From assembly GCA_052327205.1 (NCBI GenBank), contig CM126215.1, positions 77,686,001-77,750,000 of the forward strand: a stretch of DNA of 64,000 nucleotides. Reading direction: 5' to 3'. The notes beneath the pieces are model-generated. The model had not been told where the DNA came from. It made no database searches and saw nothing but the letters and a program-made list of their open reading frames with translations. The position numbers were made by a program, and so were the translations under genes. Below, in pieces: positions 4,101 to 63,178 of the stretch; position 1 is the stretch's first letter, and each line of letters begins with the position of its first letter. This DNA comes from Somniosus microcephalus. Its lineage: Eukaryota.

Positions 4101-7100
4101 ACTAAATGTTACACAGTCAAACTGAATTGAGAACTGTCTGACTGATTGAGAGTACCCTCATGAATCTGTCAATTACTCATCCATTTTGGTGTGCTGGCAG
4201 CAATTTTTTGATGCATGTAATTAAATTCATTTATTACTACAAAAAATAAAAGAACAAAAAATACAAGGTACTGGCTTAGTGACTGTAGTATAACTGCTAC
4301 AATAACAATAATGAACGTCACTGCACTTTATAGGTCAATTTAGTATATGGTCCCAATTAAAGGACTTTGTCCTTCTGAACAGGCTGCTGATCCTCCATGC
4401 ACTAGTAAAGTGTAGGCAATAGGATCACTTGCTAATTTGAAAATAACCAATTGAGGGAAATGGTCCTTAGTTACAACTGCACATTCACTTTTTTTTTAAT
4501 ATAGTTGATGCCACACCAGGTTCTTGTGATTTGAGTATGCAGTGTTCCATTTTTCATTGAGCTCAGTGCAACCTGCAGCAAGATGTGTCTGGCAGTGTAA
4601 TTCTGGTTTCTAGTATAATGGCAGCCTAAAATTAAGAAATTTGAAAGTACACAAATTACCAGCTTGGGGAATGCATAGTGGGGATACTGAAATAAAGAAT
4701 AGAAATGGATGATGCAGAAGTAGAAATTCTATAAAGATCATTTGACATAGAGATCATACATGAAGATTGGGTAATAGTTTATATAACTTTTTTAAAGAAT
4801 AAATGCAATAAAACCAAGCTAATGTGGGGTTTAATTAGAACAATCTCTGCAGTAAAAGGGTTATGTATCATTGTGTACAACATAGACACTAGTAGTATAG
4901 ATAGTTGATTTTACTTTAATGTGCTAAAGTTATTTATGTACATTTTACCTTTCGAAAGACACTGAGCATAGATAGATAGTAGTGATAATTGTACAGAAAC
5001 TGCAGGAATTTGTGCAGCTAACCACCAGATCACTAACAAGTGGCACAATATATTGATCAAGTGCGTACATTCCTCGTGTCCTTAAGGCAGCCCATTGATG
5101 CTGTTGCAAAGCAGGAGTACTAGGGAGGAATATCTGCATTCCTCCTTCTTGGGCAGTCCCTTGGACTTGCTTCCATGCTAAAAATGAGTTCTCAGGTGAC
5201 TGAGTCCAATGCGGGACATCCAGTCTCTGTCAAAGGGGGGGCAGACGGTGGGTGGGGTGCTTGGGTTGACGTGCGCTCCTTCCGCTGTTTGCACTTGGCT
5301 TCCGCTTGCTCCCGGTGAAGAGACTCGGTGTTCGGTGCCTTCCTGGATGCTTATCCTTCACTTTGTGCGGTCTTGGGCCAGGGATTCCCAGGTGTCGGTG
5401 GGGATGTTGCACTTTTTTCAAGGAGGCTTTGAGGGTGTCTTTTGAAGCGTTTCCTCTGCCCACCTGGGGCTCTCTTGCCGTGTCAGAGCTCCGAGTAGAG
5501 CGCTTGCTTTGAGAGTCTCTACCTAAGCACCCTTCCCCACTGTCAATGCATCAGAATAACTTCCAAAAAAATGCATGTGGGTACTTCGTGACATTTGTGG
5601 GTGGAGCTTACTATGTGGAGGCTTTTCCACTCCAACTTTGTTGGCAATTCTATTTAGTAACACCATGAATGAAGTGCAAGTGTGATCCATTTGACAATTA
5701 CAGAAGTCAACAGAAACATTTCCAAAGAACTTTCAGCATTTTTTTTTTTGAAAAAGTAAAAAGACCAAAATTGGTTGCCTTTCTCTTCAGCTAGTTAAAT
5801 CTGTAAATTGTTATAGCTCTAAATGAAAACAAGTTGTACCCTAACTGAGGTGATTTATTATTGTCCTAGGTCTTATTATTGATATAATTTTCGGCATTGT
5901 CAGTGGAGTCACTCCTACATACAATTTCTTTGTGATATCACGTTTCTGTGTTGGCGTGATGAATGGAGGAATGTCATTGGTGTCCTTTGTTCTACTCCAA
6001 GAGTATGTGGCTGTTTCTTATTGGGCACTAACTGGTAAGATATCAATATTGTCCTTTTTTAAAACTTTTCATGGACGAGAGAGGTGTGTGTCTGCATGTA
6101 TGTCCTTTCTGGCTGCACATTTCATTGGTAGAAAAGCAGGAGTGGGGTAGTGAGTCCTTTATGGTTCCCAATGTCTATGCTGTTGATTTAAACTGGCTGT
6201 TACTAGGTGTAGATTAATAGAACGTAGGCCTGCCTTTCGCTTGGGTTTTTTCCTCTCCTGGAAGCCCTCTTAATATCCTAGGATTACATGGGAATGCCCA
6301 GCACGGGAGCAGACCATTTGGCCTGACTGGGCCATGCTGGTGTTTATGCTCCACTCGAGTCTCTGTCAACCCCTCTCTAATCCTATCAACATAACTTCTA
6401 TTCCTTTATCACCTCATGTGTTTATCCAGCTTCTGCTTAAATACATCCATGCTATTTGCCTCAACTGCTCCTTGTGGTAGTGAGTACCACATTCTAGCCA
6501 CTCTCTGGGTAAAGAAGGTTTTCCTGAATTCCCTGTTGAATTTATTAGTGAGTACCTTGTATTATGGCCCCTAATTTTGGTCACCCCTGAGGTGGAAACA
6601 TCTTCTCTGTCTACCCTATTAAATCCTTTCATAATCATCAGTCTTCTATCAGATCACTCTTCAGCCTTCTCTTTTCTAGAGAAAAGAGCCCATGTCCCAT
6701 TTGATCATATGGGGGGGAAGCAATGCAGTGAAGCCCAGTACTAATGTTCATCCACAATCAGTTTCTAGCAGGGGTGGGGTAAAGGTGAACTTTGGCTGAT
6801 TTTTAGTATTTTTCTTGTTTCCTTTGCTAACCCACCCACTCAATGCTGGTCAAGTTGTCTCTGCCATGTTTAATACATAAGTAACATGCCTAGCTTCTAA
6901 AGCCCAACTCGGCTCTGTTTTAAAAAACATATATTGTGAACGATGATGAAGGACTACTCGAGTTTAACTTTACTGCCTTTGTTCAAGAGGCCCAGTGTAC
7001 AGATTTTGGGGGGGGGGGGAGGGAAATAGAATGTTGGGCCTGAAGAAGTTGCTCTTAATTGAGGCTGACATTGAGATAATTGGGTACTATAACTTCTATT

Positions 7101-10100: not shown

Positions 10101-13100
10101 CCCATCCTCCATTTCCTCAATTTCTCTTGCAAACACTGTTGAAGTTAAGTTCTACAGCTTTATCTTCTGACATCACTTCCCCATTGTCCTTTTTTGGTGG
10201 GCCAACTCCTTTTTGCACCCTTTGTTTACTTCTGACAGACTTGAAGAATGCTTTACTGTTCTGCTTTGTTTCCAGCTATGTGTTCCTCGTGATCCCGTGT
10301 CACTTTATTGACATTCCTTAGCCTATCTTTGTAGATCTCCCTATCCTGTTCCTTTGCTAAATATTTATTAATTTTGTATGCTTTCTCTTTCTCCCTGATG
10401 CCCCTCATAACTTTTAGTTAATAAATAAAACAGGTCTTACTCTTTTATTCTGTCTTTGACCTATTTCAGGGATAAATTCTTTTGCATCGTAAAGTATCTC
10501 TTTGAAATAATTTCACTTTCCTTCCACATCTCTTCCTATCAGTAGCTCTTTACATTTTACCATTCCCATGCATTCTGTCATATATTCTTAAAATTTGCTT
10601 CCTTTCTGTTTTCTGCCCTCATGTATACCCTGGATGTCAGAACATTATGGTCATTGATCCCAAATGTTCCCTTACTTTGCTTATTCCTCGTGATCCATTG
10701 CCGCCTTTACCCTTTCTACAAGCACATTGGTGCCTGTCCCTCCTGAACAGCTTCCCTCTGTCCCAGAACTGGTTCTAATGTCATAGGAATCTGAATCTCT
10801 CCCCCCTGTGCCATCTCAAGCCACGCAATAATGGATCTACTCTGTCCTTGCCTAACCTGCGCAGCGCATGGCACGGGAAGTAATTCTCAGATGCAGAGTA
10901 GCTGCCACAATTGCCATTTAACAGTGACTGCACATTATTGGATGCAAAACTTTCTTAGACTGAGCTATAGTATAATGGTACTACAGCAAAGTTACCTATA
11001 ATAATAACATATAATACAAAGGATCAGCTATGGATCAACTGCATGCTCCAACTGCACCTAAACAATTTCACCTGCTTCCTGCTGACCAATATCCTCCCTC
11101 ACTATCTCAATTATATTGCTCTTCAACATAAATCTATATCGCCTCCTTTTGTGATCCATCCTATCCTTTCAGGATCCCTTGTACCCATTTAATTGCGTGC
11201 GATCCATCACTATTATCCAACCATGCTAATAGATCAGCCATGATCAAGTTGAATGGCAGAACAGGCTCAAGGGGCTGAATGGCCTGATCCTGTTCTATGT
11301 TCCAACAGGTTCAGAGATGCCAGTTGTATCTAAATTTACAATAGAAGCATATGGCTATAATTCCAACATTTTATTTCTAATACTAATAGCATCAACATAA
11401 AAACAATTCCAGAAATTCTGTACACCTCACCCTTGGAATAAGGGGTCAGCTATTTAGGACTGAGATGAGGAGAAATTTCTTCACTCAGTGTTGTGAATCC
11501 TTGGAATTCTCTACCCCAGAGGGCTGTGGATGCTCAGTCGTTTAGTATATTCAAGTCAGGGATAGATAGATTTTTGGATCCAAGGAATTAAGGCATATGG
11601 GAATAGTACAGTAAGGTGCAGTTGATGTAGATCAGCCATGAACTTATTGAATGGCGGAGCAGGCTCAAAGGGCCAAATGGTGGTCTACTGCTCCTATTTC
11701 TTTTGTGCTTATGAGTAAACACTAATTCAAATACAATAAGTTGTACTGCTACCATCAGCTGCCCTGCAATTTCCAATCACAGGGCAAACTTGCTTCTCCT
11801 TTTTAACTCCAGGTAATTGTGGAAACCTTTGATGAACCCAGCCCCCAAATGAGCAGTAACATTCCAGAGACCAAAACCCTACTGCTTTATACTTAAATTT
11901 AATCACCATTTTCTGGTAATTGTACTTTTAAGAGAACAGCATTCTTATTCATAATATCATCAATTACTACATGCTGCAAGAAAAAGTAAATAGCTGCAAT
12001 TTACTGTAAAGTATCAATCTACCAAATACTTTGTCTTTCACTTCATGGTGAACTTTAGCGATTTCGCCTTCCAGGGATGTAGTTTTTGCAGATTTAAGAC
12101 CTGTAAAAAGAGCTTGTGACATTTATTGAATAAACCTTAATACAGTCAGAAGGGTTTCAGTTCAACCCCTGGGCTTGCTACATTAACAGTATTGGGCATA
12201 AGAAAGTACAATCTGATTCCTACGGAGCAAAGCTTTGTTTATGGGAGTGGCTTTTGGCACTAAGCATGAAGAAAATACCTTGTAAAAACCCAAAACTGGT
12301 ACGCAAGTCCATAGAGCGTGGTTTGGGGGGGGGGGGGATCTCATTTTGTTATTGGCTGCATGTCTGTGGAAAGGTTACTTCTTGATATAGCCATAATCTT
12401 CGTTGAACTTTTGGTGTTATTCTTGACAGTTGATGTGGCATCCTGTAAGCAGGGTTGTTTGTAAATCACTCTGTGCTAGAGTATGTTCGCAGGTAGTATT
12501 TTAATTGTTTTTTGATACATTGTTGTCAAGGAATAGTTGGCAGCATATTGCAGGAAAATTCTGTATACTGTTTCTACTGGAAGACTTTCCTTCATCACAG
12601 AAGCTTTTATTTGTATTTCGGGTGAGAGTCAGTTACGCCAATTTGTATTTTGCTCAATGTTTAGTATCTTACTGGGTGAACAGGTACACAACTGGAATTG
12701 ATGTGTTTATTCCAGCTGTTGCTCAGTTTTATTTTACAAAGAATATATTGTGACTGTCTTTTTGCAGAGGTATCCCAGAATCTCCACGTTGGCTGTGCGC
12801 TCAGGGGCGGTGGAGTGAAGCAGAGAATATCCTTGAGAACATTGCGAAGAAAAATGGTCAGAAGTGTACAGTGACCCTGAAGCCACCATCTGTCCAAAAT
12901 GGTGGTGAATCAGCTAGTGTCTTTGACCTTTTTCGGCATCGAGTTCTCTTGGGGCGGACATTGATAATGATGTATGTGTGGTACGTCTTGGAAACTATTT
13001 TGGTACACTGCTTTACTCTTTATAGTTGTGCACCACACCATCATTTTTCTGCTCTGTCTTAATTGTCCATCTAGATCTAGGGCATTGTATCAAGGTCTAT

Positions 13101-34100: not shown

Positions 34101-37100
34101 TGAATCAGACTATTCAGCTCATTAAATTTATACCTGTGTTTTTCCCCACTCTCCTATTCACTCCCTATATCTTTTTTTTTATTCCTTTTTCAAGCAACTA
34201 TCTAATTACCTTTTTAAAACAATGGTTTGAGACAGAGAATTTCAAATTCTAACTATTCTGTATAAAGACAATTTTCGAAATTCTATTTTTGATCATATTA
34301 AAATTGCACCCACTCTGTACACTCAGTTTGGGGGGGGGGGGTGGTGTGGAATCCATTACTTTATCTTAATTTTACTGATGCAGTTGTCATGAAGATTGCA
34401 GATAATTGACATTGAGGGGGAAATGTTTCCTATTTCATATGACAGGTTTCGGATCCATCCTGTTTCAAATTCTACCAATTACACCTTTTCATGTGGCTTC
34501 TCTTGTTTGATTTTAAATATATAGAGAGCACATTGTGGTGACTTTTAAACTAATGAATGGAAACTGTCTGTCTTCATGACCACCAGTTTGAACTGTTAAT
34601 TGCGAGTAAGCAATGTTTGTATGAGAGCAGATTACATTGTGCTGGCTCGGATTTTCCGGGCATGACTGCGTATGCGGCTGTAAGTGCCCTGCAAATTCCG
34701 GGTTTATGAACTGGAAGTTCCAGGTTTATGCATGTGCGAAAACCTGGAACTTGCAATCTGTCAGAATCTTCCGCATCCCCAGGAAATGGACATTTGCTGG
34801 CGGAGAGTTGGGCTATTTGCCCAGCTACTGCCCAGTGAATGCCCGTGAAACTCTTATGCCTGGTAAAAGCAGGCGAAGAGCCTTTTGCCAGCGTAAGAGT
34901 TTAAATAAATATTACAATTTTAAAAATTATTCGAACATAAAAAAAACTTGAAAATTAGTTGGGTTATTTTTAGCCCCTTAAACATTTAAATTTTTTTCAA
35001 TTTAATTTTTGTTCCATGTTTAATGAAATTGTATTAATTTTAAATGTAATTTTTTATTTCAAGGTTGTGTACATGTATATTTTGGGTGATTCCTATTAAA
35101 CTTATGGGGATTCCTTACGTAAATGGAATCCCCATAAGCATAATGGGGATCCCCTGTTCTCGTGGGTTGGCCCACGTGATCCCAGGGACGTTTGCGAACC
35201 ACATGGGCCCCGGGATACATGGGCCTCTATGAATGCGTGCATGTAGAGGCCCAGGAGCGGCAGTCTCCGTGGATCCAGGACCATCAGGTAGGTTCGTAGT
35301 TTTTATTGCAGTTTGGCGGCATCTACCCACAGGAAGCCTCCAACCGCAAATTCAGGCCCATTGTGTCAGCAGCAGGATTTCTTGAGTAACTTAGATGCTA
35401 GGTGACACTAACCAATAATCTAATTTTGATTGACCATTCTCAATTCAGAGGAAGATCAGACTGGGAGTAAATATGACTGCTGCTAATGATTACTTTACTT
35501 CATATGCTTCAACTGTTAAGCTCTGTCTGTGGTGAGCATGAAGTCCATTGTGCTTTGAGCCCATATTTAGCATATAATGTCAAAAGAATTTTGAGAATAG
35601 GACTTCAAGAATTTTGAAATGATTCATTATGTTGGACTCTGAAAACAGATTAATGTACCTAAAGTATTGAATTGTAATCTTGCACAGAAATAGGCCATTT
35701 GGCCCAACAGGTCTATGTGGGTGTTTATGCTCCACACAAGCCTCCTCCCACCTTACTTCATCTAATGCTATCAGCATATCCTCCTCATTCGTTTCTCCCT
35801 TCTGTACTTATCTAGCTTCCCATTAAATGCATCTGTGGTATTCGCCTTAACTACTCCTTGTGGTAGTATATTCCGCATGCTTACCGCTCTCTGGGTAAAT
35901 AAGTCATCGGTGTAAGTTTACTTCTTACAATAAATTAGTAGTTTAGTCTGAACTATAAAGCTGTCAGTGTGATTTTTTTTTTTTTTTTTTTTTCCCCCCC
36001 CACTGATTCAGAGGCCAGGAGTGTACAGTGGCATCCCATAGTACTTCCACTGCATACCCCACAGTATGAAGGTTCATTGTTCACCTTCCAGCCAGTTATG
36101 AGATTTTATGTATAACGCTGGGAGATACAAAGTTTTAGAAACATATGAGAGGAGCAGGAGTAGGCCATTCGGCCCCTCGAGCCTGCTCCGCCATTCAATG
36201 TGATCATGGCTGATCATCCAAATTCAGTATGCTGTCCCTGCTTTCTCCCCATATTCCTTGATCCCCTTAGCCTTAAGAAATATATCTAACTCCTTCTTGA
36301 ATATATTTAATGAATTGGCCTCAACTGTCTTCTGTGGTAGAGAATTCAACAGGTTCACCACTCTCTCGGTGAAGAAATTCCTCCTCATCTCAGTCCTAAA
36401 TGGCTTACCCCTTATCCTTAGACTGTGACCCCTGGTTCTGGACTCCCCTGCCATCGGGAACATCCTTCCTGCATCTAGTGTGTCTAGTCCTGTTAGAATT
36501 TTATAAGTTTCAATGAGATCCCCTCTCATTCTTCTAAACTCTAGTGAATATAAGCCTAATCGACCCAATCTCTCTCCATACGTCATTCCTGCCATCCCAG
36601 GTATCAGTCTGGTGAATCTTCGCTGCACTCCCTCCATGGCAAGAACATCCTTCCTCTGATACGGCGACCAAAACTGCACACAATACTCTCTGGTCTCACA
36701 TCCTTGTTCCTGTACTCGAAACTGCTCGCTATGAAGGCCAGCATACTATTTGCCTTCTTAACCGCCTGCTGCATCTGCATGCTTACCTTCAGCGACTGCT
36801 GCACAAGGACACCCAGGTCTCGTTGCACTTCCCCTTTTCCCAATCTATTGCCGTTCAGATGATCTGCCTTCCTGTTTTTGCCACCAAAGTGGATAACCTC
36901 GCACTTATCCACATTATACTGCATCTGCCCAATCGCCCAACCTGTCCAAATCATACTGGAGTTTCTCTGCATCCTCCTCACAGCACACGCCCACCCAGCT
37001 TTGTGTCATCTGCAAACTTGGAGATATTACATCTAGTCCCCTCATCCAGATCATTAATATATATTGTGAATAACTGGGGTCCTAGCACCAATCCCTGCAG

Positions 37101-40100
37101 TACCCCACTAGTCACTGCCTTCCACTTGGAAAAAGACCTGTTTATTCCAACTCTTTGCTTCCTGTCTGCCAACCAGTTCTTTATCCAAGTCAGTACCTTA
37201 CCCCCAATCCCATGTGGTTTAACTTTGCATGCTAGTCTCTTATGCGGGACCTTATTGAAAGCCTTCTGAAAGTCCAAATACACCACATCCACTGGTTCTC
37301 CCATATCTATTCTACCAGTTACATCCTCAAAAGATTCCAGTAAATTAGTCGAGCATGATTTACCCTGTAAATCCATGTTGACTTTGTCTGATCCTGTCAC
37401 TGTTTTCCCAAGTGCTCTGCTATTGCGTCTTTTATAATGGACTCTAACATTTTCCCCACTACTGATGTCAGGCTTACCGGTCTATAATTCCCTGTTTTTT
37501 CTCTACCACCTTTTTTTTAAATAGTGGGGTTACATTAGCTACCCTCCAATCCATGGGAACTGTTCCAGAGTCTATAGAATTTTGGAAGATGACTAGCAAT
37601 GCATCTACTATTTCTAGGGCCACTTCCTTAAGTACCCTAGGATGTAGATTATCAGGCCCTGGGGATTTATCAGCCTTCAATCCTGTCAATTTCCCTAACA
37701 CCATTTCCCTACAAATACTGATTTCATTCAGTTCCTCCCCCAGAACCGGTTCCAATGTCCCAGGAATTTGAATCCCTCCCCCTTGCACCATTTCTTCTAG
37801 CCACGTATTCATCTGAAATATCCTTATTTCTACTCTGGCCAGCATGTGGCGCTGGTAACAATCCTGAGGTTACTACCTTTTGAGGTCCTAATTTTTTTAA
37901 ATTTACCTCCTAACTCCCTATATTCAGCTTTTAGGACCTCATCCCATTTTTTACCTATCACGTTGGTACCTTTTATGCACCACGACAACTGGCTGTTCAC
38001 CCTCTCCCTCCAGAATGCCCTGCAGCTGCTCTGAGACATCCTTGACCCTTGCACCAGGGAGGCAACATACCATCCTGGAGTCTCGTTTGGTTCATATAAT
38101 GTATGGGCTTTCCTGTGGAAGCTGAACTTTATGGAAAGCATTAATAAGTAGTATTGGGAAATAGCCCAACTTGCAACACTACTTTTATTTAAACATGGGC
38201 AATATTAAGTGACTCCATTCCTTAAACTTCATTCTTGTCTCTTAAAGGCTTAGTTTTATGATCTTAAACAACATTAAATAAATGGTTGCATGATAACTGC
38301 AATTGGTTTAAGAATGTTGCATTCTGGAATACTTGGGCTCTTTGCCCACATATATCTGCAGTCCTTGATGTAATGGAGTTAATTTATTTTTGGATTCAAT
38401 GCTTTAGCTTAAACTTAGTTTAATATTCCTACAGAACAACATTGGTTAACTTTCTGTTGTGAAAATTAATTTTTTAATGCAAGTAAAATTGAATTTTTTA
38501 AGTGTTCTCTAGGGTTTGTTACCTAGTGTAATTCACCTTTGACAAGTACTTTTTAAAATTTCCTGATAGCTGAGTAAGTAAATCTACTGCATTGTGTTGT
38601 TGAGCCATATAGTCCAGGAAGATGATGATCTGTTGGAATGCGAATATGGTGCTTTAATTGACCAAAAGTGCCCCTTTTTTGAAAAATCAGCTAGAAATCT
38701 GCTCAATTGTTATCAAGTGCCCCCTACCTTCAACACACTGGAAAATGTGCTTGCAGGGAAATAGGATCAGGCTCCACTACTGTCATCTGCCTGTTTTCCT
38801 CTTTTTTTTCTTTCTTCTTTCTTCACCCCCCGCCCCCCAACCCCCCACCCATCATCTCCTAGACATGTAGAGCTGGAATTTCCGGCGGGGGGTTGGGCAG
38901 GGTCAGTGGGTGTGATCGGTGGCTGGTCCGGTGGGAAAGTTTTTTTTCCCCCAGTGGGTTGGGACCCCGCTGCCACAGGCCTTTCCCCAATGTCTGGTTT
39001 GTCCACGCTGAGCAGACCCGACACGCAGACTTTGTTTCAGACCTTGTTTAGAGATGATTAAGAACACATTTGAGCTCACCTTTTGATTTTTACGTGCTCG
39101 CCATGGGAATTACGTCTGTTAAGCTGAGGCAGGAGTTCAGTGGCCATTGAATCAGCTGTTGAGTTGACAACTTCAAATGTCAAGTAAAAGCTCCCACCTT
39201 AGACATCTTACCTCAGCCTTTCCACAACAGATTCACCATGCTGCAAGTCTTTACACAAGTCTCCATCCAGCCTGACCTCATTACCTCTCTCACCATTGAC
39301 AGATCGCTTCTGTCATCTCTACTTCATCTGCCATCTATTCCATACTCTCTCCTTGGTCCTCAGAATCCCACCACAATCCGCAGCACCAGGCACACCAGCA
39401 GCACCAACACCACCAACCTTCTCTGCAATCAACTGATGCTACACGGCATCAGCACCCAAGCACATTACTGCCAAGGATGGCCTCACTATGGCCAGATTTA
39501 CTTCGCTTGACGCTGTACACCCTGGCTGCCACATGATGTGCCAGGTTGGCATCACCCCACACCAACCCCATAAAAAATTCCTACAATGCCCAAGCCATTC
39601 CTTTCACACTCCTCAGCATTGTGGGGGGGTACTGTTGTTTCACCATTCACTGCAACTCACTAAGCCACTTCCAAAGGTGTGCACAAATCTGTCCAAGAAC
39701 ACTATTGAAAATAAAGATTTCAATGTATGACACCACATTAACACAAACTTTACATGAACATTGCATAAAACACCAACCAAGTGCCTACCCTTGTCTGTTG
39801 GTTGGTATGATTGGACTAGGACGAGTGTGAGGGGTGGCTCATGAGATGGGGATGTGATCATGTAAATAGTGATGGGTGGAGGTCCAACGTAAATTGGTGT
39901 GAGTAAGGATGGGTAGGGAAGGCAGTGATGGGGATGTGATGAGAGGCACAGTAGGATGAAGTGGATTGTGGCTTTGTACTAATGTTTTGTGATCTACTGA
40001 GATCATTAAAACATTTGCAGCACTCAACCCAGGTCCTCATGACCACAACCCTGCTTGTGCCCTCCTCTGCAATGTGCAACCAGGCTATATTGATCTCCTG

Positions 40101-43100
40101 GGGAAGTCTCTTCAGCCCATGGGAAGGGAAGAGGACCTCCCTGTGTGCTGTGACTCCCTCCATAAGCATATGGAGGGAGTTATGGCAGAGCCTGGGTACA
40201 GCCCTGCACCTCTGTGCAGTCATTGTCTGTGTTTGCAGCACCTCAATGCTGTAGAACACTGACAGTACAAATGTCAAAATAAAGTTGGCCGTGGTCCCTT
40301 TTAAGGAAACCAGCTGACGCATCATCAAATAACGTCACCAGACCCGCTTCTTCTAATTGGCCAGCAAACGTGCTGGGTGGCTTAACAAGCCCCATCAAGG
40401 TAAATTCATTTTGAGGCTGGGAAGGAGACGGCAGCGGGGTCTGGACCCGCCACGGACCCACCTGAGGTCAGCAAAATCGCAGCCATAGTCTGCTGGCAAT
40501 GGCTGGGATTAGACATGGAGAATAGTCACTTGGGCAAGATACCATAGTGCTCCTGGTATCTCCTGGAACTGCACCCTAGCAGTAGACCGAACTTCCTGCT
40601 GAACCCATACTCCCCAGTAAAGCTTCAAATTGGGATCCACATTGATCCGTTCTTAGCCATGTAGAGAGATGTTGTACTATGTGATGAAACTGAAACTTTG
40701 CATCCTGCACACAGGCTGGCAGAAGAAAACCAGTTGTTTAAAGATATTTTGTATGAGGATTGTATTTACTTTCTATGTTTTATCTAGTTACCATGTTTGG
40801 CTTCTAAGTAACACCACTGTCATTTATATCTTCAGTGCAATGTCATTCATATAGCATTGGTCATCTGATTTTCTTTACTGCCCTTGACAGAAATCCATTC
40901 AGTGGTCATTACCTTTTGTGGTGTTTGGCGTCGCCGGACTGCTAGCAGGAGTCCTTAGTTTGTTGCTGCCAGAAACGCTGAATCAACCTCTTCCAGAGAA
41001 GATCTCTGACCTGTACAGCGTCCCATATCACCAGCTTGAAGAAGAAGTAGTCTTGCTGCAGTCACAGGAAAATAGAATGGTACATAATCTGTGTGAAGAG
41101 AGATGCATACATAATTGTCATCTGTTATGTTCATGCCAGACTAAATCTGACAGCAACTCCACTTGAGCGAACTAGGCAGTTTGTTAAATCCCACTTTACA
41201 GAGCCTGATGTGATCAGTTTGCTGCTGCGGCAATGAACATCTACAGAATAAAAGTGGGAGAAAGTCTGTAGTAGTATTTTCTATTGGGTATCTCGGGGTA
41301 AATAAATAGTATTGTTCCTTTTATGTTAAAAGAATATTGTTTTTTGTAGCCTCATGACCATCTTCACCGTTTCTCACTGGAGCCACTCTGGTAACATTAG
41401 TTATGAGGAGGGGCTGCCTGACCCCAAAGTGCCTCTGTTCATTTCAACAGGGATCAGCATTTTGGATCACCCTGAAACACATTGTGTTTTGGAGTCACCT
41501 GGCCCAGAAAAAACACTACTGGTTAAATACTGTCACATATTGAGCTAGTACAGGGATTATTAGTATCTGGGAGCTCCTGATCATATCCCAAATGTGATTT
41601 TCTTTTGAATTGAGCTACTCTGGGACAAATGGCCCTTCCCATGCAGTGGCTGACGAGACAAGGAGATGTAATATGGGAGGTCATATGGCAAGATGACTAA
41701 ATCAATGGGATTTCAATGTGGAAAAATATACTTGCATTGTATTGAAATAAACATCATTTTGTTACATTGTATCACTGACTGACACAAAATACTCTTGCCC
41801 CACTTTGACCACACCACCATCCTCGGGCAACAATTTCTATTATTTTGTTTTAAAAAATTGAGACACTGGTGTCCATTAAATGCAGCCTCAAATTAGTCTC
41901 CCTGCTAGAGGCTGATCTATATAAATTTTAATGACTGATCATGTTCATGTATAGAGTGGGAACATGAAAGACTGTGCAAGTTTTACATACATATCAAATA
42001 CAGATGTTCTTGCCTTTTGTGAATTTAGACACTTTGCTGGGAATTTAAACAATAATGCCTGATGTGATGCATTTGATGTGAATGTATTGACGTTCTTTCA
42101 ACATTGTTTCTTTATTGCACAGCTAGATAACTGAGCATGAATGTGCAGAAATGTTTGAAAACTCATAACTTTAAATCTCTACATGTCCCTGGATGGCCTC
42201 TGCATTTATATGTATGTTCAGTGATGTATCTGCTTTAGATGATTTATTATAATTATATTTTAATCCATAATTAGCATAATCTGTGTAAAGGGTGAATGCT
42301 AATTGACCTCTAATAAAACAATCTGACTAGCTCTAATATAATATAATGACTGCCTTTTAGTGATTCCAAAACAGTAACTTCAGCTTGCTGTTCAGATAAG
42401 GTCCTATACAAGGCAAATGTGCATTTTGAAATCACTTTTGGTTTTCTTCAAATTGGCCACCTTGGTCAGACCATACTCTGCAACGACCTACAGCTTGTGA
42501 AATGCAGCTAATTGGGAGCACTTGACCAAAGGCTGAACCCAATCTTCTCTCATGTTTGTAGTTTAAAAGATTAAAGCACCATCTTCAGTGTTGAGTTGGT
42601 CCATTTGAAACAAAAAGCAGCAGTACAGACTTTTCCAAACGCTCTGGAAATCCTTATCCAAAAACAACCAGCGAGAGTGTCCCAACTAATGAGCTGCTTT
42701 TGTGATAAATGGTTTCAGTTATAAAATTTATTGCAACAAAAATGCAGCCTCTGTCATTGAATGGAAAATTACTGCTACAGGCCTAATTGAACCTAGTACA
42801 GTAGTAGGTGATCAAATGCTAGCATGTATAATTGCGATGAAAGCACGTCAGCCTATTGTTGATGCTGTGATTTCTATTCTGGGACAATAATGACTGACTT
42901 ACAAAGCCAAAATTTAGGAGGGAGGGAAAGAATGTAAGCAAGTAAATGAGGAAAAGTGTGAAAACCTCAGACGTTGAACAAAAGGATGGATATGGCAGAA
43001 TGATAAACAAATAAAGAAAACATTTTGTAGCTTTGGGAGAAAGAAATGTATAAAGTTGAATACATCTTCATTATCTGATCAAATAGATTACAGAATAACC

Positions 43101-44744: not shown

Positions 44745-45292
44745 CATTGTGTGCAGTTTTGGTCGCCTTATCTGAGGAAGGATGTTCTTGCCATGGAAGG
44801 AGTTCAGTGAAGATTCACCAGGCTGATACCTGGGATGGCAGGAATGATGTATGAGGAGAGATTGGGTCGATTGGGCTTATACTCGCTGGAGCTTAGAAGA
44901 ATGAGAGGGGATCTCATTGAAACTTATAACATTCTGACAGGACTGGACAGACTAGATGCAGGAAGGATGTTCCTGATGGTCGGGGAGTCCAGAACCAGGG
45001 GTCACAGTCTAAGGATAAGAGGTAAGCCATTTAGGACAGAAATGAGGAATTTCTTCACCCAGAGAGTGGTGAACCTGTGGAATTCTCTACCACAGAAGGT
45101 AGTAGAAGCCAATTCATTAAATATATTCAAAAAGGAGTTGGATATATTTCTTAAGGCTAAAGGGATCAAGGGGTATGGGGAGAAAGCAGGGACAGGGTAC
45201 TGAATTTGGATGATCAGCCATGATCGCATTGAATGGTGGAGCAGGCTCGAGAGGCCGAATGGCCTACTCCTGCTCCTATCTTCTATGTTTCT
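44745..45292 (+). mobile_element. Young 5'-truncated CR1/HER1 LINE inserted into a Deu-SINE (~44455-45345)
   Basis: ORF 44835-45203 is nearly identical to ORF 36224-36679; SINE sequence resumes on both sides. Confidence 0.9.
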
Positions 45293-46021
45293 ATAATTCA
45301 TTCTATGTAAAATGCTTTAAGATGTGATGAGATGCTATATAAAAAGTTTTTTTACTTTTGCTTTCGACTTCCTTAAAGTCCTCCAAGGTGATTGCTGGGC
45401 AAACTTCTACCTAATTTTGGTGGGAGGGGTGGGGTTTATATTTGTTCGAGAGATGTGCAATGCTGGCAAGGACACATTTATTGTCCATAATTGCTTTGAG
45501 AAGGTAATGATGAAAAAATAGTTTTTGTGCTGATTAAGTTCAGAGATTGGTGCTGAAAATGGAATATGTACAAATTTGTCTTCCAATATCAGCATCAAGT
45601 ACTCAGATTAGGTACACTGTGGTCCAATGCATAGTAAAAGTCCTCCTGCTCTGACCCAGCCCCAAAAGAGTACTTGCATTGTATCACAATTTTTTCACTT
45701 CACTCGGTAGCCAATCTTATGATTTACTTAGTTAAATTGTCAGTGCCAAATTATGCTGGGATGCTGGTAGTTTGGTGCTGCAGGTCCAAGCCCATTCGGG
45801 AACTGGGTTAAGATCACCCAAACCAGCTTCATGAAGCAAATAACACTGGCAAAAAGGAAACACTTCTATTAACCCATGCTGAATTCAACCAGATCCCAGC
45901 AATGAAAAGAGAATTTCTCTGAATCACCTTGTCTACCTAAGCACATTTGCTGTTTACAACCTTGAAAACAGGATGGATGGGGTTGAGTTTAGAATTCTGA
46001 ACCTAAACAGCATTGTTTGCA

Positions 46022-46380
46022 GAAATAACAACAGAAAATGCTGGAAAAACTCAGCAGGCCAGGCAACATCCATGGAGAGAAATTAGAGTCAACGTTTCGG
46101 GTCAAAACCCTTTATCAAGACTAAAGAGGCACAGGGAATGAAATAGATTAAGAGGCCAGGCTGGGAGAGAACAAAAGAGAAGAGACATTAAGAGGTATTC
46201 AAAACGAGACATCTCTTAATCTATTTCATTCCCTGTGCCTCTTTAGTCTTGATAAAGGGTTTTGACCCGAAACGTTGACTCTAATTTCTCTCCACGGATG
46301 TTGCCTGGCCTGCTGAGTTTTTCCAGCATTTTCTGTTGTTATTTCGGATTTCCAGCATCTGCAGTATTTTGCTATCGTAC
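46022..46380 (+). mobile_element. Penelope-derived fold-back element 1 (133-bp inverted arms, 58-nt spacer, 3' tail)
   Basis: 46022-46154 is the reverse complement of 46213-46345 with 1 mismatch. The right arm resembles the 3' end of the Penelope at 48300-48858. Flanking repeat TTGTTTGCAGA. Confidence 0.85.
46245..46280 (+). ncRNA. Minimal type I hammerhead ribozyme motif, U3-A8 variant (mirror copy 46087-46122 on minus)
   Basis: AGTC-TTGATAA-A-GGGT(TTTG)ACCC-GAAA-CGTT-GACT: stem I AGTC/GACT, stem II, palindromic AACGTT stem III. Confidence 0.65.
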
Positions 46381-46616
46381 TGTTGTTTGCAGAGTTCACT
46401 TATCCTAGTCTAGTGATTTATTAATTTAAGGCAGAAGTTCCTAAACATTTTTTTGCTACATTCCCCTTCACAGATTGATGTCCCATTCTTTCTAAGAAGC
46501 AATATTTTTGCATTGGACAAGAGGATTTTATTTTCTCGGTTAACATAGCATTGATTAAGACAGAAAGCAATACTGATAGCACAGTTCTAGCAAACAGGCT
46601 CACTGAGACAATGGTG

Positions 46617-46714
46617 AGTCATCAAGTGTTCTTTTATGTTCAAGTTTGTTCAGTAGCACACTACCAATACTACACTACTGAATAAACCTGAACATAAAAG
46701 AACACTTGGTGACT
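46617..46714. repeat. 40-bp inverted repeat with 18-nt loop
   Basis: 46617-46656 vs 46675-46714, 37/40 complementary; weaker pairing extends outward to ~46587/46753. Confidence 0.9.
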
Positions 46715-48023
46715 ATCCTTGGTCCCGTTGAGTAGGATGAGCGTGTTTGTTAGCACACAGTTTGTGAAATCTCAATTTGGAGTTTCAACTGCAAATCAGT
46801 CTCTACATTCAAATGGTTTCTATACTTGTTTATGATGTAAGTAAGCAAAGAAAAACCCACTTCACACAGATACGTTGAGGCAAAGTGAACAAGTATTTCA
46901 AAGGCTCTTTAGAATAACTCTGGGAACTCTTTTCGAATTGAGAGCCAAAACTGTGATGAAGAGGCATAGCTTCAAACTATCTCTTAAAACAGTCACCAGA
47001 ATCATTGATTAAATTCTCTTTTAGATTCATAGCAATCTTTGCTACAAAGTCCTCTGAAAACAGATTTTGAACTCAGGCAAAATCCTACAATTTATTTGCC
47101 TCTCTTTTGGGAAAATATTTGCTGAATTTTGCGCAAAAGCTGAGACAGATGCTCCAGAATTACACCTCTAACCACTACGACCAACATTTGACTCTCGATA
47201 ATAGAAGATAATAGTTACATTGTTTGCAGCACATAACTACACCATAGCAAAAGTGTTTTTGTAATGTTCTATACTGTTTCATGCATAATGAAAATGTTAC
47301 CATTCTTACCTTGCAAAGAAATGTCAAGTTCATGGAGTTTGTCAATTATGTTGGTCAAATAGCCCAGTAAAATCTGGAAGTGGTAATTGAGCAAGTGATG
47401 GTGGTGATTCAAAATCGCTCAAAAACATGGCACTCCTCCCTCTGTTTGCAGATTCATGCCAAAACTTTACCACGTGACTGTCTGAACCAGAAGTTGCTGG
47501 TGCACTGGGGCTGGAGTACTGAAGTGCCTTTTCTGGTGCAATGGGACCCTCCCTGCATATGCTAATGACCCTCATCCCTGTAATTTTGAACAGATCCTGG
47601 AGATCTCTGCGCAGGTGGACTTAGCTCTGCCAGTCTTCTGTTGGTGGAATAGCCCGAGCAAAATATGAAGGACTCTATTCTGTTCTCGGCTTACAGTAGA
47701 CTAGAACCGCTTAGTTAGGACTGAGTTCAGGGAGTATTTATTTGATCCCTCTAGAATGTTCATGGGGCCCCATTCCTATAGCAAGTTCAGACCAAATTCT
47801 TAATGGGAATACCAAAGTGCCTACCCAATTGATCCCTTTTATTATTTGTATTATGTGTACTGATTTCAATTAGAGGTAAGGTATCCTGTATGTTTTCATA
47901 AACTGTTAACTTATTTTGGAATTGGAACTAGTTTTTGAGGTTACAAGGCTTTGTAAAATTTATTGTACATGTGTGTATGTATGTATATATGTGTATATAT
48001 ATACTAATCCAGATCATACTGGA

Positions 48024-48089
48024 AATAAATAAAAATTCTACACTATTAATCTTAAATTTTTGTTTGCTGTGAATATTTCTTCCAATAAA
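48024..48089 (+). terminator. Candidate distal polyadenylation signals of SLC22A15
   Basis: AATAAATAAA at ~48024-48033 and AATAAA at ~48084, preceded by U-rich TGTA-containing sequence typical of 3' UTR ends; no transcript evidence. Confidence 0.4.
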
Positions 48090-48299
48090 ATTCACGAATG
48101 AACCAGTTGAAAAATTGCCATACACATTGCTTAAATTGATTCTGTAGTATCCAAAGAACATATGTATCTGGCAGAATCTGCAGGCAGTCCAGTCCACTAA
48201 CTATACTGTAGATAATGACGGTCGAATACATTAAATCCATTGGGCGATTGTTGTGTTCGGCTTTAGTCATGCAACATAGCTAAGAGCAATACCTATGCA

Positions 48300-48858
48300 G
48301 TGGGGAGACCCAACACAGATTGGGTGACCGCTTTGCAGAACACCTCCGTTCAGTCTGCAAGTGTGACCCCGAGCTTCCGGTCGTCTGTCATTTTAATTCT
48401 CCGCTCCACTCCCTCTCTGTCCTCAGCCTCTTGCACTGTTCCAACGAAGCTCAAGGAACAGCACCTCATCTTTCGATTAGGCACTTTACAGCCTTCTGGA
48501 CTCAACATCAAGTGCAACAATCTCAGATTGTAACCTCTGCCCCATTTTTTCAGATGGCAGCTGTTGATGATTCTGCTATTCCCTTTTATACCTCTTCTAG
48601 ACCCATCTTTTGTTCCTTGTGCCATTACCATCTCCTTTTGCTTTGTCATTTAACCTCTCCTGCCTTCCACCCTACCAACCCTTTGTTCTTTCCTCCCCTC
48701 CCCCTCTCCCTGCCCCTGTACTTGCTTAAAACCTGTTATATCTCTAACTTTTTCCAGTTCTGATGAAAGGTCATTGACCTGAAACATTAACTCTGTTTCT
48801 CTCTCCACAGATGCTGTCTGACCTGCTGAGTATTTCCAGCATTTTCTGTTTTTATTTA
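48300..48858 (+). mobile_element. Penelope-like element 3' end (GIY-YIG endonuclease remnant plus terminal repeat)
   Basis: GETQHRLGDRFAEHLRSV...HFNS and KEQHLIFRLGTLQPSGLN* across a frameshift, followed by a pyrimidine-rich pLTR. Confidence 0.85.
48756..48792 (+). ncRNA. Minimal hammerhead ribozyme motif in the Penelope pLTR (stem III mutated)
   Basis: AGTT-CTGATGA-A-AGGTC(ATT)GACCT-GAAA-CATT-AACT. Confidence 0.7.
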
Positions 48859-50472
48859 AGAGCAATACTGTCCACATTTGGTAAAGGTTTCCCTTAAATC
48901 ATGCACTCAGCACAGATTATGACAACACACTGTTGAGTCCTGCACAAGCTATCATTCATTGATTATTTCAAGTGTAGTCAACTGGACTAGCAGCTGCCTT
49001 TACAATTCCTTCTGGATGCCAGCTATCCACAATTACAGGGTTCCATCTGTCAAAATCTGCAGAGTGGGCCAATTGCTTGGCACCAGGGCAACAAAAAAAT
49101 CAGCAAACAAGATTCCCTTTGGGCCTAGCAGGCTATGTTCTTTACTGCCCTGGTTCAATGGATATGGTTATCTATGTATAGACAATATTTTGTTTTTGTT
49201 CTTTGAGACATTGGAATCCTTGCTTCAGACTAATCAACTAATAAAATGCCACTCGCATAGTGGACCTGAAAGTACACGGGCTACTGATCCTGGCAGTTGT
49301 GCCAGGATTGCAAATGCCAGAGTATGTGGGTCATGAGGAGGTCACTCAATTTAAATATTCCTAGCAGGCATCTATGCTAACGGGTGCACCTCGGGCACCT
49401 GCCTGCCGCAGGAGTCTGCAAAATATGGCAATGGTGGCTGGGCTGGGGGGATGTTGGGAAACCACACCCCTCCCCCACATGACTGTGCCCCCCCATGCTT
49501 GCCAAGGGGGGCCACTATTTTTTAACAAAGTTTTGGAATTCCTCCCCTTCAGGGGTCCAGATCATAAGTCAAACCTGGACCCCCATTGTGGGCCCCACAG
49601 CTGCCCCTCCTTATTCTGGGTGTACTGACTGTCAATCCCTGACCAACATTTCCCAGGTTGGGCCCATGGGAACTCCTTGGGAGACCCGGCTTACTCCATG
49701 TCAATGGCTTCATTTGGGACAGGTGGAAGCTCCACCCCAAACATAGGCCAAACAAAACACCCAGGCGAAGTTGGGACTTGGTCCCGCCTGAGTTTGCAGC
49801 TCATCTACTGTACTTCTGCTGGAGTTGCAGTGGGAGTGCGCTGGAAAGGCTCAAGGATTTTCATCCCTGAAATTTGAAGCAATGCTGCTCTAGGAAGCAG
49901 GCATGTAGTTGTGTTCTTCACCTGAGGTGGAATTATTCAATGTGAGGGTTAGAGCCTAGCCAAGAAATGTTATGGTGGGTGGACTGTGCTCTAACATACT
50001 ATCCCAATCCTACCTTTGAGGAAGAGATTTTCATTCGATCTGTCTGATCTGAATAAATATTCCATTTCAATCGTGAAAGAAACGTGTCCCCATATGCCAT
50101 GCCACACCGCCTAGTTTCCTCTCTTTCGCACTCCCCCTACCCTCGCCAACAGAGTGCAGAATTGAATCCATTCTGTTGCTGCTGTAATTTGTTGGAGGTT
50201 GAAAGGATAGAATTCTAATATAGTGCGCTCCATATCTTAGCACTTTTACCTTGAATGTTAACCTGTTACGGCACAGTTCCTTTTAGGATTATAGTAGATG
50301 TTCTTGAATGGATTAATTAACTTTTGTTACTACCTTGCTGTAGACCATTACTTTCAATAGAGTTTTCTTTTGTGATTAGAATTTAAATATGCTCGATCAG
50401 ATGCAGTTTATAGTCTTGAAAAATCCAAATGATGCAAGCCCTCTACTTTCAGTTCAGATACGGCCTCTTTCT

Positions 50473-50706
50473 AAATAACAACAGAAAACGCTGGAAAAAC
50501 TCAGCAGGCCAGGCAACATCCGTGGAGAGAGAAATAGAGTTAACGTTTCAGGTCGATGACCCTTCATCAGAACTTTGATGAAGGGTCATCGACCTGAAAC
50601 GTTAACTCTATTTCTCTCTCCACGGATGTTGCCTGGCCTGCTGAGTTTTTCCAGTGTTTTCTGTTGTTATTTCGGATTTCCAGCATCCGCAGTATTTTGC
50701 TATCGT
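50473..50706 (+). mobile_element. Penelope-derived fold-back element 2 (97-bp arms, 6-nt spacer, 3' tail)
   Basis: 50473-50569 is the reverse complement of 50576-50672 with 1 mismatch; same tail as element 1 (ggatttccagcatcYgcagtattttgctatcgt); flanking repeat CTCTTTCT. Confidence 0.85.
50538..50574 (-). ncRNA. Minimal hammerhead ribozyme motif, intact core
   Basis: Minus strand AGTT-CTGATGA-A-GGGTC(ATC)GACCT-GAAA-CGTT-AACT. Confidence 0.75.
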
Positions 50707-53700
50707 GTAAGGGCTCTTTCTGTTTAGTTGTGCTCATTTATGTTTCTTTTTCATTTTTGTCCACCGTTTTCACTCATACTCATTAGGTTAATATATCCAG
50801 CGGACTGCATATTTTTATTTAACCATTGACCTGTTTTCTGTAATAAGTATTGGTAACTGTAATGTATTCTATGCTTCCACTGGTATATTGATTGCTGAGT
50901 TTGTCATGTCTGCAGGGATGGAGGTTATGGATTTGAAAGTGTCACAATATATTAATAACTGTGTCCAATACCATAGATGCTGAGCCATTAAAGGCTCTAA
51001 GCAAGCTCCGTAGAATACCAGTTCCTTTTCTAGAGGCCCTTTCAATACATGTTCCACTTAATTCACCACTTAACTGGCAGTTCTGAAGATTGCTAGAAAA
51101 ACTAGAAGACAAAGGTGAAGTGGAAACCTATTTACACAAAATATGGTAGACAGACAAATTTCATCAAGATAATTACTATGCTAGGAGTAAAACTAGGGAA
51201 TGACAACATTTTATATCGAACATTGTGCTTACTTTTAGAGTTGCATAGGTGTGGGTTTAACAGTACCTACTATCAAAAGAGTGGATGGGGGGCACTAAAA
51301 CACAGCAGACTCTTGGTAAAATGTGAAATTGGTTTGCTTTCTACTAACTTCAATATTGTTGAAGGCTTGGTTCAGGTTGCTTGGCCCACCATTTTGGGAT
51401 GTAAATTACTGTAAAAGGCTTGTGTTTGGTCAGTTAGTTCAGTTATACTATAAATCAAAATACAGTACTGATAAACTGGTTTAATTGTACACTACTATAT
51501 TTTTGAGTTCAGTCAATAACAAGGCTGAACAATTTTATACTGTTCTGACAATCCAGCTCCTACCTAACCTCAACACGAGCAATACTTCCTGAACTGTTAG
51601 CAGTATAGAGAGATGGTGCATGACACAGAAAGCAACCTAAAGTGATGAAAAGAAATAAAACTTGTCAACCTGTCAAATTATTTATGCTGCAATATATTGT
51701 CAAAGCTAAAACTCTAATGCCTACTGTATAATCAAATAATTATAGTATATAGATAGAAATTATATTGGGAGTGCTCCCCCCCAGGCCCCACAAGGAGTTC
51801 TTGGGCCTTCCCAGCCCCGGCCTCCCCCAATTGCCATGGACCCCACACCCCGATCACCTCCAGCCCTGCTCCCACTGACTGCCGGGGACTGACCCCATGG
51901 CTCCCTGACTGTGGCCTCCTGCCGCCAAGTTCTCGCTCCCGCCCACTAGCCAAGTAGTGGCTCTGGCTGGGTGTTAGGCAACCGCTGGGAACTTTTATTT
52001 AAATTAGGTCCTGCTGTTAAGATCCGCAGAGCTTCCACATCCACGGACTCTCGCAATGTGCCACCCGCTTTGGGCCACGTGTGCATTGTTCCAGCTCCCC
52101 TTTTAAAATCGGGGCCTCGAGTGTGAGTGAGAGGGAGATTATTGGAGCTAGAGGTGAGAAGCATTTCCCCAGCTGATGAACTTGTTTTTATATATCCTGT
52201 CCAGAGAAGTGTTAGAAGGAAAATCACAGAGGTGGGAGACAAAATTCTAGTTGTAGATGGGCTTGGAAGTTAAGAGCAGTTGAGAGGGAAAAAAGTAAAT
52301 GTTTTGCAGCAAAGAAGAAACCTTATACCTTTCAGGCAGCTTTAGCAATAGAGGGATTGAGGTCAGCGGAGATATTGTCACCAAGAGTGCTGTTAGATGA
52401 AGAAAGACTGAGGTTGGCGTGATCTAAGATAAAGCAATATTCTAATGGTTAAACTGGAGAGACACGAGGAGACTTTTTTCACAAATTGAAAGAAACAAAA
52501 TTTTCATTGCCTCATTGAAATCCATGGAGATCAACATATGGTGATTCAGCCATTATTTTGCAACAGGAACACAGGTTGTGAATGCTGAGGATATGCACTC
52601 TGAAGGAACATAAGAAATAGGAGCTGGAGTTGGCCATTTGGCCCTTCGAGCCTGCTCCGCCATTGATCAACATAGAGTGGAATCAACAGCAAGAGTGGAT
52701 GGAGTGTATAATCAACGGAAGAGATCATTGATATGAAGGAAAAACAAAATGGCAGAGGACAGGTGTTAATGAAGAAAAAGTCAATGTAAAAAAATTCAGA
52801 AGATGAGCAATCAACTACAACACAACAATTTGAGAGGAAACTAAATAGGTGTGAACATTACAACATTGGTGGAGGCTAAATGATGGTAGCTTGTTTAAAA
52901 GTGTATGGCGCCAGACCCTGTCAATGACTTTGGAGATGCCCCCAAGATATATAATTGTTCAAGAGCAGAGTTTTGCAGGAGGGTAACATACAACAGGATT
53001 ACCAATGGAATGGCTACCCTAAAAAACATACTGGCAATCAGAGATTAAGTCAGAGCATTCAAGATGTTGAATAGTTTGAGAGTTAACAGCTGCTTCCATA
53101 AATTTAGATGGTCAATGCGGCATCAACGTGAAGGGTTAGAAGGGTCACTTTTCTTAGGGACAGTCTCATTGTGCATGCTGTCTAGCAGGAGCGAATGAGG
53201 AGATTTGGGGTGCAGAAATCAAACAGCCTAACAGTATTTGAGAGAGCAGAACATAATAGTTAGGACTAAACTGGTTTTGGATGCAGGTCTTCATAGAACA
53301 TAACAATATGTAGAATAAAAATCCTCACAGCTTCCTAGACTCCTGATTCATGCACAACAGGAGGAGGGATGGCCAGCTGCCTGTTTCCCCATTCCCTTCC
53401 CTCCTAACGGGGAGATGCCTGGCCTCCATTTGGCATCTCACCATAGCAATATGGATGATTTTGTCAATTTAGTAGCATTGAGAAATTTTATAGATAAATT
53501 ACTGTAATTCCAAAGAGTTAGAAAGAACTTTCCACAAGTATGAAAACTTTAAAATATGGACAATACTAATGAAGTGCCAACATGCATCTCCACAATGGAG
53601 AATGGAGATTCAGTCCTATATGTCACAATATGAACTCAAATTTAATTAAACGCTTTTCTTCATTAAATAACTGAAAATAAAATCCCATTACTTAAAACAT

Positions 53701-62483: not shown

Positions 62484-63178
62484 ATAGAATCATTGAATGG
62501 TTACAGCACAGAAGGAGGCCATTCAGCCCATCGAGCCCGTGCCGGCTCTCTGCAAGAGCACTTCAGCTAGTCCCACTCCCCCGCCCTTTCCCTGTAGCCC
62601 TGCAATTTTTTTTCCTTCAGGTACTTATCCAATTCCCTTTTGAAAGCCATGACTGAATCTGCCTCCACCACCCTTTCAGGCAGTGCATTCCAGATCCTAA
62701 TCACTCGCTGCGTAAAAAAGTTTTTCCTTATGTCGCCTTTGGTTCTTCTGCCAATTACCTTAAACCTGTGTCCTCTGGTTCTCGATCCTTCCGCCAATGG
62801 GAACGGTTTCTCTCTATCTACTCTGTCTAGACCCCTCATGATTTTGAACACCTTCATCAAATCTCCTCCCAACCATCTCTGCTTTATGTAGGACAACCCC
62901 AGCATCTCCAGTCTATCCACGTAACTGAAGTCCCTCATCCCTGGAACCATTATTGTAAATCTTTTCTGCACCCTCTCTAAGGCCTTCACATCCTTCCTAA
63001 AGTGCAGTGCCCAGAATTAGACACAATACTCCCGTTGAGGCCGAACCAGTGTTTTATAAAGTATCAACATAACTTCCTTGCTTCTGTACTCTATGCCTCT
63101 ATTTATGAAGCCCAGGATCCTGTATGCTTTTTTAAACGCTTTCTCAACCTGCCCTGCCACCTTCAATGATTTGTGCAC
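62484..63178 (-). mobile_element. CR1 LINE 3' portion, interrupted by a Gypsy element
   Basis: ORF 62567-62989 KALERVQKRFT...SRTRGHRFKV...WNALPERVVEA and tail. Confidence 0.9.

Follow-up and report, generated by a model that had tools for sequence, protein, structure and literature searches.

Hammerhead motifs of a Penelope-like element family in Somniosus microcephalus: a likely wobble route through the tertiary core pair

Introduction

Three related hammerhead motifs lie within 4.7 kb of one another in a 64,000-nucleotide stretch of the Somniosus microcephalus genome (assembly GCA_052327205.1, contig CM126215.1, positions 77,686,001 to 77,750,000 of the forward strand; hereafter the window), and they raise the question of what has kept their fold while the bases that build it changed. 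A sequence-only reading of the window had assigned the motifs, here called (a), (b) and (c), to Penelope-derived inserts and had taken the differences between them as covariation at three independent pairings. All three strings are present at the positions and on the strands given (46245-46280 plus, 48756-48792 plus and 50538-50574 minus), and their stem I pairs, the base of stem II, the states of positions 3 and 8 and the extra A after A9 were read correctly. They carry the YUGANRA, GAAA and NUH core with stems I and II that defines the minimal type I hammerhead of Penelope-like elements (PLEs). Covariation at independent pairings, on the other hand, is not shown by three copies, because two of the three double changes fall on a single branch, separating (a) from (b) and (c).

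Selection on the hammerhead fold, which the same reading had proposed, is supported once the subfamily series of the whole genome is used in place of the three copies. Within this series the tertiary pair between positions 3 and 8 has likely changed one base at a time through G·U wobbles, from C3-G8 to U3·G8, to U3-A8 and again to U3·G8. Penelope hammerheads, the U3-A8 pair and covariation are already in print; new are the wobble ladder with its dominant young U3·G8 lineage, a defined 5' end at stem I and insertions made from two templates.

Core states across the genome

Genome copies were counted by exact patterns, the combinations of U3 or C3 with G8 or A8 being counted in one common, wider frame. 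This gave 24,420 copies with C3-G8, 12,777 with U3·G8, 6,871 with U3-A8 and 1,944 with C3·A8, figures that are not family shares because exact patterns favour young copies. Pairs of a purine at 3 with a pyrimidine at 8 (G3-C8, A3-U8) occur in only 2 copies genome-wide, which rules out subfamilies of either kind. The U3-A8 state is a true subfamily state, and the TTGATAA of motif (a) is not private to this locus: the type (a) motif has 634 exact genome copies against 0 for a backwards control pattern, and so does not arise by chance.

The C3·A8 copies are mostly products of CpG decay. In 89 of the first 100 listed N7 was found by eye to be C, and the class amounts to 10% of the copies with C7, a size that matches decay at neighbouring sites. 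Only 4 of the first 100 listed have the C2.1-G1.1 context, below the decay expectation, and no C·A subfamily could be established genome-wide. The U3·G8 matches listed belong nearly all to a single uniform type that has N7=A and GUC as its site. U17 is carried by 591 U3·G8 copies, 39 of the first 100 of them in the C2.1-G1.1 context when read by eye, and the transitional U3·G8 group is put at about 230 copies (confidence interval 174-291), where C3-to-U decay of the parent would give about 35 and reversion of A8, by our own estimate, some 20 more.

Selection on the fold

Sixteen representatives were picked by hand, one per subfamily state. None of the 9 required core bases varies among them, whereas the free positions (N7, H17 and loop II) vary in 7 of 7 cases (p = 9e-5), and this contrast is a stronger signal than the steps at paired positions. 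H17 is never G, being only U or C, the extra A between 9 and 10.1 is invariant (16/16), and the CG at 15.2-16.2, within the palindrome of stem III, is likewise kept in all sixteen. Of the 68 columns just upstream of the motif 58 vary between subfamilies, as compared with 13 of the 61 just downstream.

In every subfamily state the three variable pairs (2.1/1.1, 3/8 and 10.1/11.1) form either Watson-Crick or G·U pairs, and 139 of 140 cells are paired, with a G·U class in all three variable pairs; these figures are descriptive, as the shuffle control ignores relatedness and gap placement is poor in four rows. The pair 10.1/11.1, for example, is G-C in 9 representatives, G·U in 6 and A-U in 1. The informative steps are those that lead away from a Watson-Crick pair; there are five or six, all of them to G·U (p 0.03-0.016).

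Order of the changes

The tree comprises 85 copies, with ribozyme and CpG columns removed, and was obtained by a quick search and rooted at its midpoint. It forms a ladder that runs from C3-G8 through a small U3·G8 group to U3-A8 and then to a young U3·G8 clade. Within the C3-G8 part stem I has U-A, then U·G, then C-G; within the U3-A8 part N7 is first C, then U (the type of motif (a)), then A, at which point stem I has U·G together with C17 and afterwards U-A. The ladder ends in the U3·G8 clade, which holds 22 rows with SH-aLRT support of 100 and the shortest tips, and which is supported at 100/98 by the columns of the open reading frame (ORF) alone. The direction assigned to the ladder rests on the lengths of the tips and on C3-G8 as the usual state. 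Young full copies share about 98% identity and type (a) copies about 95%, and in a second, weakly resolved tree four transitional U3·G8 copies sit at the border between C3-G8 and U3-A8. The youngest lineage is U3·G8 and intact, its core wobble being expected to weaken cutting; the sequence-only reading had set U3-G8 aside as an inactive control, and it is in fact the natural state of this lineage.

The three inserts in the window

The features of the inserts, in which pLTR stands for pseudo-long terminal repeat, are as follows.

46013..46023, no strand: left target-site duplication of insert (a), 11 bp, repeated at 46383-46393
46022..46212, minus: inverted arm of insert (a), a pLTR piece ending at a short tail
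46087..46122, minus: second U3-A8 minimal hammerhead motif, identical to 46245-46280
46213..46382, plus: direct arm of insert (a), a pLTR piece with the ORF start (ATG at 46298) and a long tail
46245..46280, plus: motif (a), U3-A8, N7=U, stem I C2.1-G1.1, G10.1-C11.1, GUU site, predicted cut 46276/46277
46383..46393, no strand: right target-site duplication of insert (a)
48281..48292, no strand: left target-site duplication of insert (b), 12 bp, repeated at 48857-48868
48302..48527, plus: decayed C-terminal end of a GIY-YIG endonuclease in insert (b), with a deletion and a frame break (tblastn against the intact protein of locus L232, 81-84% identity, E 3e-21)
48756..48792, plus: motif (b), C3-G8, A10.1-U11.1, palindrome broken
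48857..48868, no strand: right target-site duplication of insert (b), after a short tail
50462..50472, no strand: left target-site duplication of insert (c), 11 bp, 1 mismatch, repeated at 50711-50721
50473..50574, minus: inverted arm of insert (c), from the first base of stem I to a short tail
50538..50574, minus: motif (c), C3-G8, G10.1·U11.1, GUU site
50575..50706, plus: direct arm of insert (c), starting inside the core (U4), without the 5' strand of stem I, with a long tail
50711..50721, no strand: right target-site duplication of insert (c)

The three inserts are truncated insertions of one Penelope-like family, with reverse transcriptase (RT) and GIY-YIG endonuclease, and differ in subfamily and age. 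Since each has its own target-site duplication of 11-12 bp, they represent three separate insertion events. Inserts (a) and (c) each consist of two inverted arms, head to head and 99% complementary, so that the three inserts hold five motif copies in all, one of them, the second motif of insert (c), being cut at its 5' side at U4 and running from 50576 on the plus strand. Copy (b) reads ACAU instead of ACGU, which breaks the palindrome of stem III, and relative to its own subfamily three of its sites (N7, loop II and 16.2) have likely undergone CpG decay. The window copies are dead and evolve neutrally. No further copy of the family was found in the 64 kb by blastn, and Rfam at gathering threshold gave 0 matches in the window. 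Given three inserts in the window, a span of 4.7 kb has a p of about 0.015; the cluster brings together insertions of different subfamily and age and has no apparent function.

The parent element

The Penelope origin of the inserts holds: in addition to the GIY-YIG end in insert (b), full elements exist in which an ORF for RT and GIY-YIG lies between motif-bearing pLTRs. Copies of type (a) reach up to 2.4 kb into this common ORF, and one full but frameshifted element (L032) has U3-A8 motifs in both pLTRs. The motif is present in both pLTRs of the full elements at L032, L231, L232, L234 and L235, and tandem units occur at L231, L233 and L234. At L232 an ORF of 954 residues without a stop lies between two U3·G8 motifs in the order pLTR-ORF-pLTR, and in intact elements the conserved ATG of the ORF stands 21 nt after the predicted cut site. 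The protein matches the Pfam families RVT_1 (E 3e-4) and GIY-YIG (E 1e-3), both under the curated cut-offs, and carries DKG, YIDD and LYIGET motifs; a search of its sequence against the PDB gave no match. Between RT and endonuclease, at residues 821-829, is a CX4CxxC linker of the Neptune/Nematis type (CX2-5CxxC in PMC8557442), and the family is an endonuclease-containing (EN+) PLE with a Neptune-type linker.

The pLTRs derived from partial tandems, the inverted 5' copy, the tail at one end and the target-site duplication make up the known anatomy of Penelope. A 27-base word of the tail has 60,439 exact copies in 6.4 Gb. Of 73 inverted pairs listed, 22 were dropped for an arm identity below 85%, and among the remaining 51, with similar arms, 46 combine one long with one short tail against 49% expected. 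In the young U3·G8 lineage the intact ORF extends over L232:1994-4924 (minus) and tandem arrays over L233:1928-7710 (minus); RNA reads cover this ORF, with a bias to one strand in one run.

Insertion ends and templates

The 5' ends of insertions pile up at the first base of stem I, where 29 of 314 fall in a 9-nt window as compared with 0.55 per nt upstream; many of these loci were picked by patterns that require the motif, yet 7 of 53 unbiased copies agree. The pile could come from a transcription start, from trimming up to the fold or from a splice site. A pyrimidine tract and an AG are present, and no spliced joint to the AG at stem I was found in two RNA runs within 640 nt upstream. Ends of this kind account for about a tenth of copies, including position 50574 of the window (minus arm of insert (c)) and L333-L362, and stand in an initiator-like context after the pyrimidine tract.

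The genome pattern for ends at the first base of stem I has 1,781 matches, and 10 of 30 are one insertion carried by another repeat. A short hammerhead-plus-tail insertion has here been captured by an unrelated repeat of ~1 kb, whose amplification has probably given several hundred copies that are about 90% identical (L335, about 1236-2247; also L338, L340, L342, L344, L348, L355, L356, L358 and L360). Genomic copies of older subfamilies show a recurrent 6-base deletion of the stem III palindrome and cut site (L306, L312, L313, L320, L323, L326 and L330), and a different repeat has an inverted, rearranged tail piece and shared flanks (L308, L311, L325 and L329).

At least four single insertions, each with one target-site duplication, have two arms of different subfamily types (L296, the clearest case, at 1400-1600; L269, 800-1560; L295; L220). 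Such mixed arms imply two template RNAs per event and subfamilies that overlapped in time. The RNA from which insertions are copied is uncut.

Proposed explanation and alternatives

We consider it reasonably probable that the inserts are independent 5'-truncated PLE insertions whose minimal type I fold is kept by selection in the transposing master elements, with slow cutting that is predicted to be aided by the protein of the element and a second copy of its RNA. Changes at the pairs would have been fixed singly through G·U wobbles, and cutting would be weak enough for a wobble at 3-8 to be tolerated. Two RNAs may meet in one transposition complex, where stem III could form between their ACGU palindromes. 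A cut after GUU or GUC would be a side step that releases the RNA with the ORF from tandem or read-through transcripts, or that removes spent RNA. A more far-reaching account, which we offer tentatively and regard as rather doubtful in its entirety, would have the 3-8 pair pass, within one genome, through an entire compensatory series by way of U·G, ending in a natural U3·G8 lineage that is currently transposing; its RNA would begin at the first base of the ribozyme, two RNAs would enter each complex, the minimal ribozyme would be a trans dimer held by protein, and selection would have tuned its cutting rate down.

Several observations weigh against the explanation proposed. Were cut RNA the template, insertions would be expected to begin at position 1.1; 5' ends lie within 2 nt of the cut site in 2 of 53 tail-anchored copies, compared with 6 in the 26 nt above. 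The cut-site pattern has 478 matches in the genome, and of 30 read by eye 16 are true truncations, 8 are internal deletions of the palindrome and 5 belong to another repeat. In two RNA runs, which bear the same species label as the best-matching run on record, no pile of reads was seen at the cut site, the reads coming mostly from embedded copies and from both strands. The best predicted fold of monomers (b) and (c) is an alternative helix, and predicted homodimers make no use of the ACGU pairing. The test of wobble against mismatch is thin, only 5-6 steps being informative, the trees are partly unresolved, with a midpoint root and with mosaics in the second, and the two C3·A8 copies inside the N7=A lineage (L086 and L133) make a tiny C·A sub-lineage possible.

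One rival has some, if clearly lesser, probability, namely that the fold is selected as a structure that binds protein or protects the 5' end, with catalysis vestigial and the young U3·G8 lineage catalytically dead. The wobble in the youngest, intact lineage and the fact that insertions begin with the first paired base of stem I and not with the cut site are both in line with it, as are available passages reporting that hammerhead mutants have no effect on insertion in vitro (PMC11167929) and that Naiad PLEs thrive without hammerheads (PMC8557442). Against it, U4, G5, A6, A9, G12-A14, A15.1 and U16.1 show no variation, the U3·G8 clade included, H17 is restricted to U or C and 3-8 is always pairable, the pattern of the active tertiary fold.

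Conservation as a signal in DNA or splicing is considerably less probable. The motif could hold an initiator at the stem I A with a downstream promoter element near +29, a 3' splice site with pyrimidine tract and AG as in Drosophila Penelope, or coding sequence. In all subfamilies the stem I A follows a pyrimidine tract in the context YYANWYY, the initiator consensus; in D. virilis, Penelope combines an initiator with a downstream element, and its intron ends at stem I; and in the young clade no stop interrupts the frame across the motif. Paired changes separated by 30 nt are nevertheless left unexplained, a difference of 2 nt in the length of loop II alters both the spacing and the frame, stop codons interrupt the ATG frame in type (a), and the two RNA runs gave no spliced joint to the AG. 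Coding constraint on the motif is ruled out, as the frame is not kept. As a sole cause a signal is weak, though it may still account for the invariant AG. A neutral origin of the covariation, in which the appearance of compensation results from C-to-T and G-to-A drift (CpG decay) together with recombination within one master lineage, is more improbable again. Every change is a transition, G8 lies within a CpG when N7=C, and arms of different subfamilies do meet in single insertions; yet CpG bias predicts C3·A8 first, and no such subfamily is seen in the C2.1-G1.1 context (4 of 100 listed), where U3·G8 is in excess, and the CpG at 15.2-16.2 has been kept in all 16 representatives. We give scarcely any credence to the inserts having been co-opted as a ribozyme cluster that acts on a transcript of the host locus: they do fall within 4.7 kb (p about 0.015) and 5-10 kb beyond a probable late transporter exon, but their duplications, subfamilies and ages are all separate, (b) has lost its palindrome, the motifs lie on both strands and the genome holds >60,000 copies.

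Surroundings of the inserts

Probable exons of a sugar/organic-ion transporter gene lie on the plus strand at 5854-6150, 12754-13062 and 40888-41166 of the window, one of the three pieces matching Sugar_tr; we take the gene to be SLC22-like. The inserts stand 5-10 kb past the last recognisable exon piece, probably a late exon. A 58-nt inverted repeat (83%) at 46599-46732 resembles a miniature inverted-repeat transposable element and is unrelated to the Penelope inserts. Decayed fragments of long interspersed nuclear elements, presumably CR1-like, occupy 36224-37869, 44811-45203 and 62567-63016.

Comparison with known systems

The motifs resemble the pLTR hammerheads of metazoan PLEs, for which the passages available describe a CUGANGA/GAAA/NUH core, a 4-bp stem I, an extra base at 9/10.1 and a palindromic 15.2-16.2, as well as motifs in both pLTRs, thousands of solo copies, opposite-strand pairs and U3-A8 families (Cervera and De la Pena, 2014, PMC4209133). 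They differ in their short stem II (4-5 bp), which in older subfamilies starts with A-U or G·U. The same source, as far as available, reports low dimer activity for minimal PLE hammerheads and shows no cartilaginous fish in its table or alignment; it gives no subfamily order and does not discuss U3·G8 in its text, although the Saccoglossus row of its Fig. S3 reads UUGAAGAA, which is U3·G8. The U3-A8 core, which the sequence-only reading had called unusual, is described there for Schistosoma Penelope hammerheads and elsewhere for other natural hammerheads, with the same compensatory core change and with reported activity in vitro (Perreault et al., 2011, PMC3088659). The latter ribozymes are not from PLEs, and the parts available describe no wobble state or path. 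In a pairwise scan of another hammerhead only G3-C8 rescued.

With the Anolis Poseidon element PAc the family shares, according to the passages available, two RT start sites that yield a short and a long tail, extension of both DNA strands, an uncut RNA template and the lack of reads ending at the cut site; the Anolis hammerhead is reported as protein-assisted and dispensable for insertion in vitro (Frangieh et al., 2024, PMC11167929). PAc, in contrast, belongs to the Poseidon clade and has its start codon inside the ribozyme, whereas here the ATG follows the cut site and the linker is CX4CxxC. The succession of RT, cysteine linker and C-terminal GIY-YIG is that of the Neptune and Nematis EN+ PLEs, as are partial tandems, an inverted 5' copy and a tail at one end, as far as that source was available (Craig et al., 2021, PMC8557442), the placement here being by linker. 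Non-LTR retrozymes, whose type I hammerheads are described in the text available as related to those of PLE pLTRs, are short head-to-tail tandems without an ORF (bioRxiv 10.64898/2026.07.22.740005), unlike the dispersed truncated copies of a coding element described here. Retrozyme identity is ruled out for the window inserts, which stand alone or head-to-head and descend from an element with an ORF.

Literature searches turned up neither a U3·G8 lineage nor a wobble path, and no work on Penelope hammerheads in sharks, as judged by listings or passages. They returned no in vitro data on U3·G8, some of which may be contained in Przybilski and Hammann (2007) and Nelson and Uhlenbeck (2008).

Significance

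An ordered allelic series (C3-G8, U3·G8, U3-A8, U3·G8), with copy number and relative age known and accompanied by an intact ORF, makes the role of PLE hammerheads directly testable. It also offers a rare view, within one genome, of a tertiary RNA pair evolving by way of a wobble.

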